The position numbers and the translations under genes are program-made. The notes under the pieces are model-generated. The model did not search any database, was not told where the DNA came from, and saw only the letters and a list, made by a program, of their open reading frames with translations. Of a DNA stretch of 64,000 nt, positions 18,389-61,143 are shown piece by piece. This stretch comes from Candidatus Hadarchaeales archaeon (GTDB taxonomy: Archaea; Hadarchaeota; Hadarchaeia; Hadarchaeales; Hadarchaeaceae), in the NCBI GenBank assembly GCA_038823825.1, contig JAWBCC010000003.1, forward strand, positions 69,351 through 133,350. Direction: 5' to 3'. Each line of letters starts with the position of its first letter. Within the stretch, counting starts at the first letter, position 1.

Positions 18389-18479
18389 GCCCGCGGTAGC
18401 TCAGCTTGGTAGAGCGGCCGGCTGTAGACCCGTCGGCCGAAACCGGCATGTCGGGAGTTCAAATCTCCCCCGCGGGACC
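18389..18479 (+). tRNA. tRNA-Tyr (anticodon GTA) with a ~14-nt intron at the canonical 37/38 position
   Basis: Acceptor CCCGCGG/CCGCGGG. D arm GCTC...GAGC. Anticodon stem GCCGG with loop CTGTAGA gives GTA. The 3' half of the anticodon stem (CCGGC) appears only after an inserted CCCGTCGGCCGAAA. T arm GGGAG-TTCAAAT-CTCCC. CCA encoded. Confidence 0.8.
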
Positions 18480-18502
18480 ATGAGTCCATTTCAATCGCCT
18501 GC

Positions 18503-32615: not shown

Positions 32616-32804
32616 ATGAGGCTGAAAGGACCGAAGTGCATGATCTGTGGGGAGAAGATACAGATAATGAGTATGGACTCGGCCTACGTGAAGTTTGTTA
32701 GACCTGGCGAAGCCAAAGGAATCTTCATCTGCTGGAAGTGTGCTGAAAAGGAGTTCGGCGAAGTCCTGCAGGATATCCTGACAAAGGTCGCTGGTAAGGG
32801 GTGA
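32616..32804 (+). CDS. Small zinc-ribbon protein (62 aa, CxxC...CxxC), translationally coupled to the downstream AEP gene
   Basis: CMICGEK...CWKCAEKE. Stop overlaps the start of the next gene by 4 nt. Confidence 0.45.
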   Translation: MRLKGPKCMICGEKIQIMSMDSAYVKFVRPGEAKGIFICWKCAEKEFGEVLQDILTKVAGKG

Positions 32805-33886
32805 TCTCCTTGACGGTCACTCCCCAAGATCACATCCTGATGACCCTAGCCATCAAAAGGATAGGAAAATTCGTAGATCTCGAACACATAAGGGAAAAGC
32901 TCTGCAGGGACGGAGGAAGGGATTTCTCTCTGGAAGAGACGAAGATGCTTTTAGATTCATTGATCGGAAAGGGTCTCGTGCAGGAGAAAGGAGGGGAGTA
33001 CGCTCTCACGGAAAAGGGCCGCGACTTTTTCGAGAAAAGATGGAGAGAAGTTAAAGATCATCTGAATCAAGACTATCTAAAGGTCTACCGGGCAAAGCGA
33101 TATTACCCCCATGTTTCTAAAACCATCCTAGAGTTCTGCAAGGACAGATACGTTTCAGTTTTCAGGCTCTTTACAGACCGTGCCTGGCTTCAAAGGAAAC
33201 TCGGTCCCCGCTGGATAACGATAAAGAGCGAGGACGACATACAATACTGGCTGGACATTCACGGCATCGATTTCATCCCCTACATTCACAGAATTGGAAG
33301 CGATAGGCCCGACTGGCTCGTCATAGATTTTGACGCCGGAAAGAAAGTAGAGTTCGAGCAGACGAAGAAGGTTGTCATGACAGCCGCCGAAGTTTTACAT
33401 AATTACGGAATCGAGGTTGCGTTGAAGTTCAGCGGTTCCCGTGGCTTCCAGCTTTGGGCGGTTTTCGAGCCTCACGATCTGCCGACAGATTACCAACCAA
33501 AAAAGCTGAAAACGGAACGCAGGGAACGAAACTTTTTCACCTTTTACTCGGATATCATAAGATTTGTCGAAAGCAGAGTAGCGAAAAAACTCCCGAATCT
33601 CACAACCTCGGAAACGGCGAAAAAAGAAGAGAGGGAAGACAAAGTCCTCCTCGACGCCTCCATAATAAAGCCGATGGGAGACGTCAGGGCTCCCTATTCC
33701 ATGCATCACCGAACTGGTCTCATTTCCATGCCAGTGGGTTTAGATGAGCTAGAGGAATTCGAACCCAAGCAGGCAGATCCAGATCTTGTCGTTCAGCGCT
33801 ATAGGAAAAGGGGAAACGAATTTAAGCTCAAGCCTTGTGATGGTTCAAAGTTGTTCGAAGATTTGGTCAAATGGTGCAAAGAGTAA
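32801..33886 (+). CDS. Archaeo-eukaryotic primase (AEP) superfamily primase-polymerase of the LigD PolDom / NHEJ-polymerase type, with an N-terminal winged-helix domain
   Basis: Motif I LVIDFDAG (hhhDhD). Motif II FSGSRGFQLWAVF (SGxxGxH-like, with Gln where His is usual). Motif III LLDASIIKPMGDVRAPYSMHHRTGLISMPV matches the PolDom pattern D.S....G...APYS...R.G..S.P. The N-terminal ~100 aa is wHTH-like. Confidence 0.65.
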   Translation: MISLTVTPQDHILMTLAIKRIGKFVDLEHIREKLCRDGGRDFSLEETKMLLDSLIGKGLVQEKGGEYALTEKGRDFFEKRWREVKDHLNQDYLKVYRAKRYYPHVSKTILEFCKDRYVSVFRLFTDRAWLQRKLGPRWITIKSEDDIQYWLDIHGIDFIPYIHRIGSDRPDWLVIDFDAGKKVEFEQTKKVVMTAAEVLHNYGIEVALKFSGSRGFQLWAVFEPHDLPTDYQPKKLKTERRERNFFTFYSDIIRFVESRVAKKLPNLTTSETAKKEEREDKVLLDASIIKPMGDVRAPYSMHHRTGLISMPVGLDELEEFEPKQADPDLVVQRYRKRGNEFKLKPCDGSKLFEDLVKWCKE

Positions 33887-33937
33887 GACTTTCTAGATTA
33901 TCCCTTTTCTTTCTGCATCGATTTCTAAAATCCAAAT

Positions 33938-34223
33938 AGGAGGGCCCCCGCTGTTCCCCGACACACTAACCCCCGGCTTCATCGTTTGCCTTTTCGGCGC
34001 TCTCCGCCAGGTAACCCTCATGGCGGGGATTCCACGGGGACCTGATCGCCTGTTCCGCACAGGGGTTGTCTTCGGGTCATGGGCAGACGGTTCGCCACTT
34101 CCTCCCCGAAGGACCCGTCCGCGCGGTTTCTCGGCGGTCATAGCTCCAGTGTCTCCGCGGCCTTGCCCAGCGTTCATAAAAAATCCCGCTGCCCTCGTAG
34201 CCGCGGAACTCCCCTCTCATCGC
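33938..34223. ncRNA. GC-rich, highly structured ~290-nt intergenic region. Candidate structural ncRNA in the SRP (7S) RNA or RNase P RNA size class; strand unresolved.
   Basis: GC content is far above the flanking coding DNA. It is dense in local complementarity (e.g. CCGCCAGG...TGGCGG, GACGG...CCGTC enclosing a UUCG tetraloop). The only ORFs are Arg/Gly/Pro-rich shadows. It sits between convergent and divergent protein genes, with 400 bp of otherwise unused space. Confidence 0.4.
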
Positions 34224-34295
34224 AAATAACCATATCTCACGCAAAGGGTATTAACTTAACGTTTCCAAGTTTATTATCTCACGAGGGGTGCGGTA

Positions 34296-36368
34296 ATGAA
34301 GAAGGTGTTCGTGATATGCGAAAAGCCGTCAGCTGTTCCTAAGATAGCTGAAGCGATAGCCGGGAGAAAGGTTACCCAGAAAGAGCTGATGGGTATCCCA
34401 TATTGCGAGTTTGAAAGAGACGGAAAGCTCTTCGTCGTCGCACCGGCGATGGGACATTTGTTTACTCTAAAAAGTATAAAGTCTCTCAAAGATTATCCGG
34501 TTTTTGACCTCAAATGGGTGCCCATCCATGAGGTCGAGAAAAACGCAAAAAATGCGGCTAGATTCATAAAAGCCCTGAGAGAGCTCTCAAAGAACGCAGA
34601 GGAGTTTATAAGTGCCTGTGATTTTGACGTCGAAGGAAGCGTTATTGCCTTCAACGTTCTCCGCTTCATCTGCGGGAGTGATGTCATATCCAAAGCGAGG
34701 AGGATGAAGTTCTCCACGCTCACCCGCGAAGAGTTAAAGAAATCTTTCGAGAATATGCTGCCCACATTAGACTTTGAAGTTATAAATGCCGGTCTCGCAA
34801 GACATTATCTCGACTGGTATTGGGGGATGAACGTCTCAAGATTTCTAAGCTCTGCAGCCGAGAAGGCTGGAAATAGATTTGTAAAGTTATCGGCCGGTCG
34901 TGTTCAAACCCCCACTCTTAAAATCCTTCTCGATCGCGAGAGAGAAATAAAGAACTTTGTTTCGGTTCCCTTCTGGGTTTTGAAAGCCGTGATCGAAATC
35001 GGCGGGGAAGAGTTCATCGCTGAACATGAAACAGAAAAATTTTGGGAGAAAGAAAAAGCTGAGGAAGTCTACTCGGCATGCCTTGGGCAACCGGCGAGGG
35101 TAGTCGAAGTCAAACGCAGAAAAATAAACAGAAATCCTCCACCTCCGTTTGATCTAGGAACGCTCCAGTCGGAGGCATACAGATGTTTTGGTTTCACACC
35201 TATGAGGACGCAGATGATCGCCCAAGATCTCTATCAAGCCGCGCTTATCAGTTATCCAAGAACGAGCAGCCAAAAGCTCCCCAGCTCGATAGGCTACCGC
35301 GATATTCTACAGAGAATTGCGAAAATCTCACCAGACTACGCTGAAATCGCTCTAGATCTTCTGAGACAGCAAAAATTAGTCCCGGTCGAAGGTAAGAAAA
35401 CGGACCCGGCGCATCCGGCCATATTTCCGACGGGCGAGCCACCTGAAGAGCTCCCAAGCACCCATCAAAAGCTGTATGACATGATCGTCCGCAGATTCCT
35501 CGCTGTTTTCAGCAAGCCCGCTATGCTCGAAAGCACGCATGCAGATTTGGACATAGGCGGTCAAAGGTTCTTCCTCCGCGGTCAAAGAATACTCGATCCA
35601 GGATGGCTTGAATCCTACGGAAAGTATGTTTCCTACGAGGAACAAATGATTCCGGAGATAGAGAAAGGCGAAGAGCTGAAAGTCAAGAACATTCTGTTGG
35701 AGGAAAGAAGGACACAACCGCCGCCCAGATTTAACCCAGCATCGCTCGTGAAAGAGATGGAGGCGCGCGGTCTCGGGACGGAGGCGACCAGAGGCCCCAT
35801 TGTGCAAACCCTTTACCAGCGCGGGTATATTCAGGGTAGACAGATAACGGTTACACGGCTGGGGGAAACCGTGGTTGAAAGTCTTAGGATATGTCCGGCA
35901 ATTCTGAGCGAGGAACTCACCGCCAGATTCGAGCGGGAGATGATGGAAATTCAGGAAGGAAAGGCAAATTGGGAAGACGTTGTCAAAAAAGCTGAGCGAG
36001 AACTCTCCACTTTGCTGGAAGAAATGAAAGCGAGGGAGAAAGAGGTCGGAGAGAGATTGATTGAGGCTTACAAGCTTGCCTTGAGAAAATCCTTTGGAAA
36101 ATGCCCAAAGTGTGGAAAAAATCTGAGAATGGTGATTGCACAAAAGAGCGGGAAGAGGTTTGTCGGCTGTGAGGGTTATCCATCCTGCGACTTTTCTCTG
36201 CCACTACCTCAGCAGGGAAGCATAGAAATTCTAGATACTCCTTGCAAGATCTGTGGTTGGCCGGTCATTCTCGTGAGAAGAAGTGGCAAGCGACCTTACA
36301 GAACATGTTTGAACCCATCTTGTTCGTCGAAAAATCGCTTGAAGGATGTGTATAACCAGCAGGAATAA
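34296..36368 (+). CDS. topA: DNA topoisomerase I (type IA) with C-terminal zinc ribbons
   Basis: Toprim start VFVICEKPSAVPKIAEAI. Active-site Tyr region (ISYPRTSSQ). C-terminal Cys4 zinc ribbons (CPKCGKNL..., CKICGWP...). At 690 aa it is too short for reverse gyrase. Confidence 0.85.
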   Translation: MKKVFVICEKPSAVPKIAEAIAGRKVTQKELMGIPYCEFERDGKLFVVAPAMGHLFTLKSIKSLKDYPVFDLKWVPIHEVEKNAKNAARFIKALRELSKNAEEFISACDFDVEGSVIAFNVLRFICGSDVISKARRMKFSTLTREELKKSFENMLPTLDFEVINAGLARHYLDWYWGMNVSRFLSSAAEKAGNRFVKLSAGRVQTPTLKILLDREREIKNFVSVPFWVLKAVIEIGGEEFIAEHETEKFWEKEKAEEVYSACLGQPARVVEVKRRKINRNPPPPFDLGTLQSEAYRCFGFTPMRTQMIAQDLYQAALISYPRTSSQKLPSSIGYRDILQRIAKISPDYAEIALDLLRQQKLVPVEGKKTDPAHPAIFPTGEPPEELPSTHQKLYDMIVRRFLAVFSKPAMLESTHADLDIGGQRFFLRGQRILDPGWLESYGKYVSYEEQMIPEIEKGEELKVKNILLEERRTQPPPRFNPASLVKEMEARGLGTEATRGPIVQTLYQRGYIQGRQITVTRLGETVVESLRICPAILSEELTARFEREMMEIQEGKANWEDVVKKAERELSTLLEEMKAREKEVGERLIEAYKLALRKSFGKCPKCGKNLRMVIAQKSGKRFVGCEGYPSCDFSLPLPQQGSIEILDTPCKICGWPVILVRRSGKRPYRTCLNPSCSSKNRLKDVYNQQE

Positions 36369-44730: not shown

Positions 44731-45186
44731 ATGGGAGTTTCACCCAATTTCTTCAGGGTGAATGGAATGCAAATCAGAGTAAATCTCACATACATCTCGG
44801 CGGAAAGATTGATGGAGCCCGGGGAGACCGGTCCGCCTCAGGTACAGATCTCCACGAATGTGAATATCATCGGTGCTGAATTTAAACGAGAAAACTTGGT
44901 AATCCCCTTTATAGTGACCATAAACTATTCCCCTTCTATTGCTCAGATAAGCATGAAAGGTCAAGCATTTATCTCGGGTGAACCGGACGAACTGAAAAAG
45001 ATAGAGACTGGATATAAGGGAAAATCCCCACCATCTCCGCAAATACTACAAGCCATAACGAGTGCATCCTTGATCGAAGCGACAATCATTTCAAGATCCC
45101 TAAACATACCCCCACCACTTCCTCTGCCTTCCATCTCTCAGCAGATGAAATCCGAGGATAAGGAGAAACCGTCCTATGTTGGTTGA
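44731..45186 (+). CDS. Hypothetical protein
   Basis: ORF only. A possible internal start at MQIRVNL. Pro-rich C-terminus. Confidence 0.3.
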   Translation: MGVSPNFFRVNGMQIRVNLTYISAERLMEPGETGPPQVQISTNVNIIGAEFKRENLVIPFIVTINYSPSIAQISMKGQAFISGEPDELKKIETGYKGKSPPSPQILQAITSASLIEATIISRSLNIPPPLPLPSISQQMKSEDKEKPSYVG

Positions 45187-45217
45187 GGGTTCCTGTAGGT
45201 TGGACCCGGCAAACTGG

Positions 45218-45288
45218 CTCCCGGCCGCCATGCCCTGCAGGAGCTCTGGAGTCTCTCCAGCCATGGCTGCAGGTCCACCAGCCGGGAC
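45218..45288. other. Compact GC-rich nested-symmetry element. An inverted repeat CTCCCGGC/GCCGGGAC flanks a direct repeat of CCATG(C/G)CCTGCAGG, which in turn flanks a central CTGGAG-TCT-CTCCAG hairpin.
   Basis: Seen directly in the sequence. Only Arg/Pro/Gly-rich shadow ORFs overlap it. It lies in a 138-bp intergenic gap. Confidence 0.35.
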
Positions 45289-45324
45289 CAGGTCGATAGG
45301 TCCGTTCCAAGATAGGTAGATTAA

Positions 45325-60197: not shown

Positions 60198-60833
60198 ATG
60201 AAGTTAGATCTACACGTTCACTCGCGTTATTCTGTCAAGGATTGTTCTTCGAATTTGAAAGATCTCGTGAAAATCGCAAAAATGAAAGGGTTGGATGGTT
60301 TTGCTCTCACGGATCACGACACCGTTGCAGGTCTCAGGGAGGCTAAAAGATTTTCTTCAAAGGGATTCCTGATAATCCCCGGCGTTGAAGTTTCCACAAC
60401 CGGAGGTCATGTTCTCGGGCTCGGCGTGAGCGATGAAATCCCCAAAGGACTAAAACCAGAGGAGACTGTCGAAAAAATACACGAGCAGGGCGGAGTCGCT
60501 GTGGCGGCCCATCCTTTTTCACTCGGCAGAAGAGCGTCTCTTGTCTACAGGACGAAGTTTGACGCTATCGAGATTCTCAATGCCCGGGCAGGGTGGCTCT
60601 CCAACAAGCTGGCAGAAAATTTTGCGAAAAATCATGGCATTGTTGGAGTTGGTGGCTCAGACGCCCATTTGTTAACGGATGTTGGCACCGCTTACACTGT
60701 TTTGAACTGTGGGTCTAAAATAGAGGAAGTGCTAGAAAGTATAAGAGGGGGAGAGACATCAGTAGGCGGGCGATCTCTCCCCCTCCCCTTGACCCTGTGG
60801 AGGATCCTCCAGCGCACCCTCCACAAAGGGTGA
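60198..60833 (+). CDS. PHP-domain phosphoesterase
   Basis: MKLDLHVHSRYS...ALTDHDTV with later His/Asp/Glu ligands (AAHP, GGSDAH). Confidence 0.75.
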   Translation: MKLDLHVHSRYSVKDCSSNLKDLVKIAKMKGLDGFALTDHDTVAGLREAKRFSSKGFLIIPGVEVSTTGGHVLGLGVSDEIPKGLKPEETVEKIHEQGGVAVAAHPFSLGRRASLVYRTKFDAIEILNARAGWLSNKLAENFAKNHGIVGVGGSDAHLLTDVGTAYTVLNCGSKIEEVLESIRGGETSVGGRSLPLPLTLWRILQRTLHKG

Positions 60834-60842
60834 GCGCAAAGG

Positions 60843-60869
60843 CGGGGAGGCTTTATCTCCCCGCCTATG
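60843..60869. terminator. Perfect 10-bp-stem hairpin (AGGCGGGGAG-GCTTTAT-CTCCCCGCCT) between convergent genes
   Basis: Inverted repeat read directly. It sits in the 60-bp gap between the PHP gene (+) and the RHH gene (-). Confidence 0.45.
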
Positions 60870-60894
60870 CTGGCTAGACCCGAGAGGCGATGGT

Positions 60895-61143
60895 TCAGCG
60901 TGATTTTTTCGCATATTCAACGAATCCTTTAACTTTCTCCAAGTTTGCCATCATCCAATCATGAATCATTTTTCTGACAACCTCGCTTCTATTCGCTCCA
61001 TAGCCGGCTCCAACGAGGTCGTCAATGATCTTGAGATAAAGACCTTCAACAAACACCCGGACTTCGACCTTGTGTTGTCCGGATGTTTTTTCTTGTTCAA
61101 CCATTCTTTTCATCCCTCCAGTTAACTGTAACTTCACTGACAC
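60895..61143 (-). CDS. Ribbon-helix-helix (CopG-like) small DNA-binding protein
   Basis: Beta-strand VEVRVFV followed by two helices (LYLKIIDDLV...GANRSEVVRKMIHDW). Confidence 0.4.
   Translation of the reverse strand: MSVKLQLTGGMKRMVEQEKTSGQHKVEVRVFVEGLYLKIIDDLVGAGYGANRSEVVRKMIHDWMMANLEKVKGFVEYAKKSR

Follow-up and report, generated by a model that had tools for sequence, protein, structure and literature searches.

A probable tripartite box H/ACA guide RNA of Hadarchaeota, encoded upstream of a topoisomerase I gene and related to Pab40 (HgcG)

The locus and its homologs

We analyzed a GC-rich intergenic block in a 64,000 nt stretch of the genome of a Candidatus Hadarchaeales archaeon (contig JAWBCC010000003.1; hereafter, the window), which very probably is a minus-strand gene for one small RNA (sRNA) of about 285 nt that consists of three tandem box H/ACA guide units and is a divergent counterpart of the archaeal sRNAs Pab40, Pf7 and Afu4 (Rfam family HgcG). 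The block is flanked by an open reading frame (ORF) for a PrimPol-like protein (32801..33886, plus strand) and by a topoisomerase I gene (34296..36368, plus strand), and genes for an endonuclease V and for a homocysteine-biosynthesis protein are found farther out on the flanks. The GC content, determined for segments of 200 nt, is 0.58-0.635 within the block vs. about 0.44-0.50 in the flanks. A scan with 120 nt segments delineated the region 33931-34231 as the longest and most GC-rich island of the window (0.625; window mean 0.455, standard deviation 0.056), in agreement with the strong GC enrichment reported in the initial annotation, which had been made from the sequence alone. The same locus is present, with an identical sequence, on a contig of a metagenome-assembled genome (MAG) at NCBI, JAWBHM010000008.1 (GCA_038834995.1), and in assemblies from the SRA. 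The block is intergenic, and neither the public MAG contig nor any of the SRA assemblies has a gene call in the gap between the PrimPol-like ORF and the topoisomerase I gene.

Homologs of the block were detected in five Hadarchaeota loci, always with the relative strand unchanged (nhmmer E = 1e-15 to 4e-29 with the single sequence as query, and E = 1e-84 to 1e-101 with a profile). In four of the five loci, the homolog is located immediately upstream of the topoisomerase gene, and in the remaining one, it lies 3 kb away. The six block sequences are about 70-77% identical to each other. The nearest relatives of the adjacent topoisomerase itself, with 54-57% identity, are encoded in Hadarchaeota/Hadesarchaea MAGs. 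Neither the nhmmer profile nor a covariance model (CM) of module 3 yielded a further homolog in the loci L001, L004, L007, L014 and L015 or in the topoisomerase loci from outside the Hadarchaeota, and a second copy was not found in the window by either method. The genome in which the sRNA is not adjacent to the topoisomerase gene, at a distance of about 3 kb, is that of Candidatus Hadarchaeum yellowstonense (L005:2705-3033).

In the alignment of the six sequences, conservation extends over positions 33938..34224 of the minus strand, about 282-287 nt, from which the ends of the sRNA were deduced; this interval coincides almost exactly with the block that had been delimited by eye (33938-34223). 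The 5' end is predicted to map near 34224-34226 because a TATA-like promoter element, TTAAGTTAATA (34249..34259, minus strand), is located 25-36 nt upstream of the conserved 5' end, UGCGAUGA. TATA-like elements of the type AAACTTTTAGCC are located at an equal distance upstream of the five orthologs, so that the element is present at all six loci, and its conservation suggests that the sRNA is transcribed. As expected for an archaeon, a scan for a sigma-70 promoter of the block retrieved nothing. The 3' end would follow the last helix, either at 33943 or in a U-rich tail (33936-33925); U-rich runs are indeed present 3' of this helix.

Three tandem H/ACA units

Read on the minus strand, the block can be parsed into three consecutive units, each of which consists of a lower stem (H1), an internal loop with two guide strands, an upper stem (H2) that leads to a kink-turn (K-turn) or a K-loop, and an ACA box. 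In unit 1 (34150..34208), the 9 bp H1 (34208-34200/34161-53) is followed by the 5' guide (34199-92, UACGAGGG), a 5 bp H2 (34191-87/34172-68), a K-loop (34186-73, GGA-U6AU-GAA), the 3' guide (34167-62, GGCAAG), and the ACA box (34152-50). Unit 2 (34051..34126) is built from an 8 bp H1 (34126-19/34062-55), the 5' guide (34118-12, ACGGGUC), H2 (34111-05/34076-70, CUUCGGG/CCCGAAG), the 3' guide (34069-63, ACAACCC), and the ACA box (34053-51); its K-turn comprises a GA (34104-03), a 2 bp canonical (C) stem (34102-01/34083-82), an apical hairpin (34096-86), a CAU bulge (34081-79), and the opposing GA (34078-77). Unit 3 (33952..34029) has an H1 of 10 bp (34029-20/33966-55), the 3' strand of which contains two single bulges, the 5' guide (34019-12, GAGGGUUA), a 6 bp H2 (34011-06/33977-72, CCUGGC/GCCGGG), the 3' guide (33971-67, GGUUA), and the ACA box (33954-52), and its K-turn is formed by G-GA (34005-03), an apical part (34002-33984), a GAU bulge (33983-81), and GA-A (33980-78). 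The linkers between the units are 0-2 nt long. The initial annotation had described a UUCG-capped stem in the block. This stem turned out to be a misreading: CUUCGGG (34111-34105, minus strand) is not a cap but belongs to the upper stem of hairpin 2, of which it forms the 5' strand by pairing with CCCGAAG (34076-34070). This pairing covaries, and in one ortholog, CUUCAGA paired with UCaUGAAG takes its place, so that UUCG is lost.

The criteria for archaeal box H/ACA RNAs were taken from Muller (2008; PMC2377435) and Toffano-Nioche (2015; PMC4652768). In the published motif, H1 has no fewer than 7 bp, each strand of the pocket has 5-11 nt, H2 extends over 5-6 bp up to the K-turn or K-loop with its tandem sheared G-A pairs, and an ANA box, usually ACA, follows H1 with little or no spacing (PMC2377435). 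In the window, the three H1 stems have 9, 8 and 10 bp, the last with two bulges; in some orthologs, those of units 1 and 2 are only 6-7 bp long. The pairs of the H1 stems are kept and covary. The 5'/3' pocket strands have 8/6, 7/7 and 8/5 nt in units 1, 2 and 3, respectively, and H2 comprises 5 bp in unit 1 (6 bp in the orthologs), 6 bp and an additional Watson-Crick 3b-3n pair in unit 2, and 6 bp in unit 3. Tandem GA/GA elements with a 3 nt bulge on the 3' strand are present in the units and represent putative L7Ae binding sites. ACA boxes follow H1 in all three units and are invariant in all six sequences. The spacing between H2 and the ACA box is 14-15 nt for productive H/ACA folds and 14-16 nt among all folds, and subfamilies with a bulged stem 1 are recognized (PMC4652768). 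The respective spacings in the window are 15 nt in unit 1, 16 nt in unit 2 (as in all six sequences), and 17 nt including the two bulged nucleotides, effectively 15 nt, in unit 3.

The pattern of conservation fits this assignment. The ACA boxes and the cores of the guides (CGAG/GCA in unit 1, GGGUC/CAACCC in unit 2, and GAGGGUU/GUUAGU in unit 3) are unchanged in all six sequences, whereas the stems vary. The GA/GA elements of the K-turns are likewise invariant, with the sole exception of unit 3 of L005, which has GAA on the 5' strand (G-AA in place of G-GA); H1 is also more irregular in this unit.

The structure was parsed by hand, and the parse reproduces all six sequences exactly; unit 3 was aligned with Infernal. 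Full-length MAFFT alignment combined with RNAalifold misaligned and misfolded hairpin 3, and MAFFT alignment of the single modules shifted some strands of the window sequence by one column. Covariation was derived from column-based pair counts, and the controls consisted of pairs with slid partners and of 500 shuffles. Across the parse of all six sequences, 97.8% of the proposed pairs are canonical. For module 1, 94.4% of the cells are paired vs. 35-44% with slid partners, and there are two double changes; the variation in this module is too low for the shuffle test. For module 2, the corresponding values are 96.8% vs. 35-42%, five pairs have both sides changed, and none of the 500 shuffles reached the observed values. 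For module 3, counted on the Infernal alignment, which leans towards the model, 89.9% of the cells are paired vs. 36-57% with slid partners, seven double changes were found, and the covariation score was not reached by any of the 500 shuffles. Thus, the helices covary across the six Hadarchaeota sequences, as would be expected if the initial suggestion of a structural RNA was correct.

The strand, which had been left open, could also be assigned. Many G-U pairs are conserved for which a plus-strand RNA would have C-A mismatches, and this establishes the minus strand as the sense strand. An RNA encoded on the plus strand was considered and rejected, given that none of the motifs occur there, that the conserved G-U pairs are turned into C-A mismatches, and that the z score of the folding energy is -0.45.

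A near-identical strain (L140:2200-2537, SRR27730034) encodes an identical topoisomerase protein and differs by four substitutions in or around the sRNA (34234, 34231, 34032 and 33939). All four are located outside of the helices, guides and boxes, a distribution that is weakly consistent with the proposed structure.

Relationship to HgcG

The initial annotation had anticipated that an Rfam search might reveal archaeal signal recognition particle (SRP) RNA or RNase P RNA. At the curated thresholds, only four tRNAs were detected in the entire window, and both of these RNAs were absent. In a permissive scan of the region (33700-34450, E ≤ 10), there were only two matches, HgcG and HgcE, both of which are archaeal H/ACA guides and both of which lie on the minus strand. 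The match of HgcG (Pab40; RF00064) in the window covers all 276 positions of the model (19.7 bits, E = 0.0028). Full-length matches to HgcG were found again at the same locus and on the same strand in the orthologs L016 (26.3 bits) and L003 (21.3 bits); in all three, it is the best Rfam family. The search thus gave no support to the identities that had been proposed and returned sub-threshold matches to H/ACA guides instead. Unit 1 aligns to HgcG motif 1, and unit 3 to HgcG motif 3 as well as to HgcE, which matches the K-turn hairpin of this unit.

Pab40 (P. abyssi), Pf7 (P. furiosus), Pho40 and Afu4 (A. fulgidus) share with the window RNA three tandem H/ACA units in the same order; Pab40, Pf7 and Afu4 have been described as three-motif sRNAs (PMC2377435). 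The pocket of unit 1 (CGAGG ... GCA) resembles the HgcG consensus GCGAGG ... UGCGA, and that of unit 3 (GGGUUA ... GUUA) resembles the consensus GGUUAG ... UGUUA. Furthermore, the predicted targets of units 1 and 3 are the same uridines as those of motifs 1 and 3 of Pab40, namely, P. abyssi 2588 (E. coli 2496) in helix 89 and P. abyssi 2016 in the loop of helix 69 (H69), and the two candidate targets of unit 2 (2555 in the A loop, and 2586) are both sites that have been discussed for motif 2 of Afu4 and Pf7 (PMC2377435, PMC4652768).

The differences are also considerable. The window RNA and its orthologs are too diverged for the curated HgcG model (19.7-26.3 bits, compared with a gathering score of 77). 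In the HgcG consensus, the lower stem of motif 2 starts directly after the ACA of motif 1, and there are neither enclosing helices nor a basal K-turn, whereas the window RNA has a fourth K-turn that closes unit 1, outer helices around units 2 and 3, and each ACA in an internal loop. Hairpin 2 differs from that of HgcG/Pab40 by its full K-turn with an apical hairpin and by its H2-to-ACA spacing of 16 nt, and hairpin 3 by the two bulged nucleotides in H1. Finally, the hosts of the Pab40 group are Thermococcales and Archaeoglobales, whereas the window RNA is from Hadarchaeota.

Guides for the same conserved sites of the large subunit are known from other organisms. In yeast, pseudouridine 2923 in the A loop, the equivalent of E. 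coli U2554, is guided by snR10, and the pseudouridines of H69 are guided by snR191. These eukaryotic snR10- and snR191-type RNAs lack K-turns. In Haloferax volcanii, the double-hairpin sRNAs Hvo1 and Hvo2 are of this kind, and Hvo2 targets positions L1956 and L1958 in the H69 loop (PMC4652768). Both the haloarchaeal and the eukaryotic guides differ from the window RNA in the number of hairpins, and no sequence similarity to them is detectable.

Predicted targets in 23S rRNA

Complementarity was assessed on metagenomic archaeal 23S sequences rather than on the rRNA of the organism itself, and positions are given in E. coli numbering. As a proxy for the target, E. coli rRNA was largely uninformative: position 2496 is a C there, the stem of the A loop is different, and H69 alone was recovered, and weakly. 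The targets were evaluated by the rank of the sites that are homologous a priori, in place of averaged raw scores. On the metagenomic 23S sequences, complementarity of both guide strands around an unpaired 5'-UN-3' (or UNN) was found for units 1 and 3.

For unit 1, the predicted target is U2496, which lies near the peptidyl-transferase center, at the helix 89 base. The 5' guides of five of the six sequences contain AUCGAG, which is complementary to the universal CUCGAU (2499-2504). From the guides, the target pattern UGC-U-N-YCUCGAUGUCGG (TGCTNYCTCGATGTCGGCTC) was predicted, and a scan of the metagenome collection detected it in at least 120 stretches; the two that were tested with Rfam, L019 and L041, proved to be full-length archaeal large-subunit rRNAs. 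Among the matches listed, most read GG-CUUGC-U-(A/U)-CCUCGAUG. The CU, present in most of these, lies outside the search pattern and completes the complement of GCAAG in the window. In the resulting duplex, GCAAG would pair with CUUGC (2491-95) and CGAGG with CCUCG (2498-2502), that is, 5 + 5 bp, and the U between them aligns with E. coli 2496. By an offset of 92, which follows from the Pab35 sites (PMC2377435) and the corresponding E. coli positions, U2496 is equated with P. abyssi 2588. The latter position, in helix 89, is an experimentally validated target of motif 1 of Pab40 (PMC2377435).

The predicted target of unit 3 is U1915 in the H69 loop, where GUUA would pair with UAAC (1911-14) and GAGGGUUA with URACCCUC (1917-24), 4 + 8 bp; H69 variants with the predicted ACCCUC strand do exist. 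Among about 610 uridines, U1915 ranks first for the guides of hairpin 3 in 13 of 24 archaeal 23S sequences, compared with 1.4% for shuffled guides. Motif 3 of Pab40, Af4.3 and a motif of M. jannaschii act at this same position (PMC2377435, PMC4652768).

The target of unit 2 is predicted to be a uridine of domain V, either U2554/U2555 in the A loop or U2586. Around U2554/U2555, 7-8 + 4-5 bp can be formed in 23S variants reading GGGGUUGUUCGCCC, and the A loop (A. fulgidus 2601, P. abyssi 2647, E. coli 2555) was the original proposal for motif 2 of Afu4. The fit to U2586 comprises 5 + 4 bp, and this site (A. fulgidus 2632, P. furiosus 2701) is the alternative that was proposed by Muller et al. 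(PMC2377435). In the GC-rich archaeal 23S sequences L041, L019, L069 and L079, the expected sites have ranks of 1-3 for all three units.

Two further features of the 23S sequences were observed in the course of the metagenome scan. In the archaeal-type 23S sequences of L057, L076, L108, L114 and L040, additional sequence (at least about 30 nt in the part inspected) separates the A loop from the peptidyl-transferase motif and is lacking at the other loci, and L038 contains two copies of the peptidyl-transferase center motif about 3 kb apart.

Enclosing elements

In addition to the three units, the RNA contains elements that enclose them, all of which are encoded on the minus strand. The first is a basal C/D-like K-turn. 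Its 5' strand (34214..34224) consists of UGC (C-stem), GAU (3 nt bulge), GA, G, and AG (non-canonical (NC) stem), and its 3' strand (34141..34149, CU-G-GA-GCuA) starts directly after the ACA of hairpin 1. Across the orthologs, a 5' leader UGC-GAU-GA-N-RG is combined with CY-N-GA-GCA after the ACA, forming a 3 bp C-stem and a 2 bp NC-stem. The AUGA and the opposing GA are invariant in the six sequences, and the stem pairs are kept, with one NC pair alternating between AU, GU and GC. Because this variation is one-sided only, the support for the basal K-turn is moderate. The outer helix of unit 2 is formed by GACCGCC (34133..34139) and GGCGAUC (34044..34050), the latter starting directly after the ACA of unit 2 and pairing, from 34050 to 34044, with the former; double, compensatory changes were found in two of its seven pairs. 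The outer helix of unit 3 is formed by GGUCCCCG (34035..34042), which pairs with 33950-33943, and by CGGGGGCC (33943..33950), one nucleotide past the ACA of unit 3. This helix of 8 bp (GGYCCCCG/CGGGGGCC in the alignment) is 97.9% paired and almost invariant, that is, conserved without covariation. The enclosing elements thus place each of the ACA boxes within an internal loop, the strands of which measure 5-7 by 3-5 nt.

A partial precedent for an H/ACA sRNA with a C/D-type motif is Pab21/Pf1 (PMC2377435). The K-turn of the window RNA differs in that it is composed of the 5' leader (GAUGA) and of sequence after the ACA of unit 1 (C-GA), so that it encloses unit 1; for Pab21, the topology was compared with a text description only. 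A box C/D sRNA would be characterized by boxes C (RUGAUGA) and D (CUGA), boxes C'/D', and a methylation guide of 10-12 nt upstream of D or D'. The sRNA has only the one C/D-like K-turn (GAUGA with C-GA); a canonical CUGA, a C'/D' pair and a methylation guide segment were not found in it, and there is no C/D family among its Rfam matches.

The extra helices and the basal K-turn are likely to ensure that each of the three units folds on its own and remains stable at high temperature, and they could possibly recruit a further L7Ae. A more far-reaching notion is that these elements amount to a separate, "caged" type of H/ACA architecture that has four K-turns and in which the outer helices hold the ACA boxes in internal loops and the C/D-like K-turn clamps unit 1. 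We regard this as a tentative and rather doubtful proposal. If it is true, the assembly of the ribonucleoprotein (RNP) in this lineage would be unlike that of the archaeal H/ACA sRNPs described so far. Cbf5 might recognize the ACA within an internal loop; the opening of the outer helices, or the excision of the units, might be a regulated step; or the stacked outer helices might form a rigid scaffold that presents three catalytic modules to sites of the nascent 50S subunit (H69, helix 89 and the A loop).

Weighing the alternatives

Several observations weigh against the assignment of the block to the H/ACA guides of the Pab40 group. The HgcG scores are far below the gathering score, so that the RNA does not belong to the family as curated. 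The folding energy of the whole molecule is unremarkable (z = -1.6 for the minus strand, compared with -0.45 for the plus strand). An ACA box in a helix-closed internal loop differs from the context described for binding of the Cbf5 PUA domain, and the H2-to-ACA spacing of hairpin 2 exceeds the 14-15 nt of productive folds (PMC4652768) by one. With respect to the targets, raw guide-target scores averaged over 40 diverse rRNAs were no better than the best matches of shuffled guides anywhere. The 23S loci were selected by the guide pattern of hairpin 1, so that the evidence for this hairpin is independent of the selection only as far as the extra CU and the position are concerned. Moreover, its 3' guide in the five orthologs (GCAUCA) would pair over only 3 bp with rRNA of the CUUGC type, and no rRNA fitting this guide (UGAUGC-U) was found among the matches listed. 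Finally, the assignment of hairpin 2 is weak: the A loop ranks first in 5 of 24 sequences, compared with 6.6% for shuffles, and the alternative, U2586, also fits, by 5 + 4 bp.

The alternative that survives best is a variant of the tripartite guide, according to which the 285 nt transcript is only the precursor of three mature, separate single-hairpin H/ACA sRNAs, with the basal K-turn and the outer helices serving as signals for processing or protection. This variant would account for the fact that each unit is closed by its own helix, with linkers of 0-2 nt, and Pab21 has been reported in two forms, with and without the C/D motif (PMC2377435). Nevertheless, we consider it unlikely because the RNAs of the Pab40 group have been described as three-motif sRNAs and because no bulge-helix-bulge motif was found by eye at the junctions of the units.

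Clearly less probable is a structured, L7Ae-binding H/ACA-like RNA that does not function in rRNA pseudouridylation and is instead a non-productive scaffold, a guide for non-ribosomal targets, or a chaperone of 50S assembly. For Pyrococcus and Pyrobaculum, the discussion in the literature has included H/ACA-like RNAs, folds that are not productive, and targets outside of the ribosome (PMC4652768), and such an RNA would fit the enclosure of the ACA boxes, the spacing in hairpin 2, and raw target scores that, taken alone, are not significant. However, the cores of the guides do not vary, the pockets of two units are directed at exactly those sites that the homologous Pab40 motifs use (PMC2377435), and the H2 lengths (5-6 bp) as well as the spacings in hairpins 1 and 3 obey the rules for productive folds.

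It is very improbable that the block is a small or decayed protein-coding gene, with Arg/Gly/Pro-rich ORFs that are, or once were, real. ORFs of this composition had been pointed out in the initial annotation as mere shadows, and both strands indeed have them (one of 94 aa on the minus strand, and two of 69 and 87 aa on the plus strand). The window sequence also has stop-free frames of 91-110 aa in either orientation, but at a GC content of 62%, open frames should arise by chance. Each ortholog differs from the window by 7-13 indels whose length is not divisible by three, every ortholog contains stops in all three frames of the RNA sense, and the frame that is open in antisense differs between orthologs. 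In addition, the substitutions in the helices are compensatory and not codon-like. These results also dispose of the decayed gene remnant that had been held out as the fallback explanation. That the block encodes archaeal SRP RNA or RNase P RNA, with which its size of about 290 nt, its GC richness and the unannotated locus are compatible, is virtually ruled out because neither family was found at its gathering score in the window or at E ≤ 10 in the region, no match to the universal SRP domain IV or RNase P P4/CR-I-V motifs was found in the block, and the conserved structure is that of three independent hairpins with ACA boxes and K-turns rather than either fold.

Other features of the window

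A 62-aa ORF (32616-32804) with two CxxC pairs, reminiscent of a zinc ribbon, is located directly upstream of the PrimPol-like gene and overlaps its start; it is called as a gene in the public contigs, too, and has no Pfam family. A second GC-rich island (45151-45321, GC content 0.596) lies outside of any stop-free frame of at least 100 aa, is overlapped by minus-strand ORFs of 82-88 aa, and has no meaningful Rfam match, only a microRNA match at chance level; it could represent another small RNA or a small gene. In the 60 nt gap between the convergent ORFs 60198..60833 (plus strand) and 60895..61143 (minus strand), there is a GC-rich hairpin (60811-60876, GGCGGGGAG-GCUUUAUC-UCCCCGCC), which may be a terminator-like or protective structure; its Rfam matches are weak and at chance level only (FinP, 24.9 bits vs. 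a gathering score of 45). The tRNA at 18390-18480, a tRNA-Tyr (GTA), is unusually long (88 nt according to Rfam and 91 nt according to ARAGORN), which is compatible with an intron-containing archaeal tRNA-Tyr.

Discussion

The initial proposal of an unannotated structural RNA in a thermophile-type archaeal genome is backed by the conservation, covariation and motif content of the block, and what these features describe is very probably a tripartite H/ACA guide. By analogy with the family, L7Ae would bind to the K-loop or K-turn on top of each unit, and the lower stem together with the ACA box would be the docking site of Cbf5-Nop10-Gar1. The guide strands of the pocket would then pair with 23S rRNA on both sides of the target uridine, which Cbf5 would isomerize to pseudouridine.

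Although this kind of RNA is well known, the member, the lineage and the scaffold are new to the sources searched, and no description of H/ACA guides in Hadarchaeota was found in the searched literature. Neither Rfam at its curated thresholds nor the gene calls in the SRA assemblies and on the public MAG contig include the gene, so that its identification fills a gap in the annotation. The outer helices and the basal K-turn provide a testable structural variant for research on the assembly of H/ACA RNPs, and the alignment of the six sequences, together with the guide and target assignments, could seed a broader CM.

Because the predicted sites in helix 89 and H69, as well as the candidate sites of motif 2, match those of the RNAs from Thermococcales and Archaeoglobales, the results suggest that the tripartite guide is old. 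If so, a single RNA that guides modifications at the functional center of the ribosome would be common to distant archaeal lineages.

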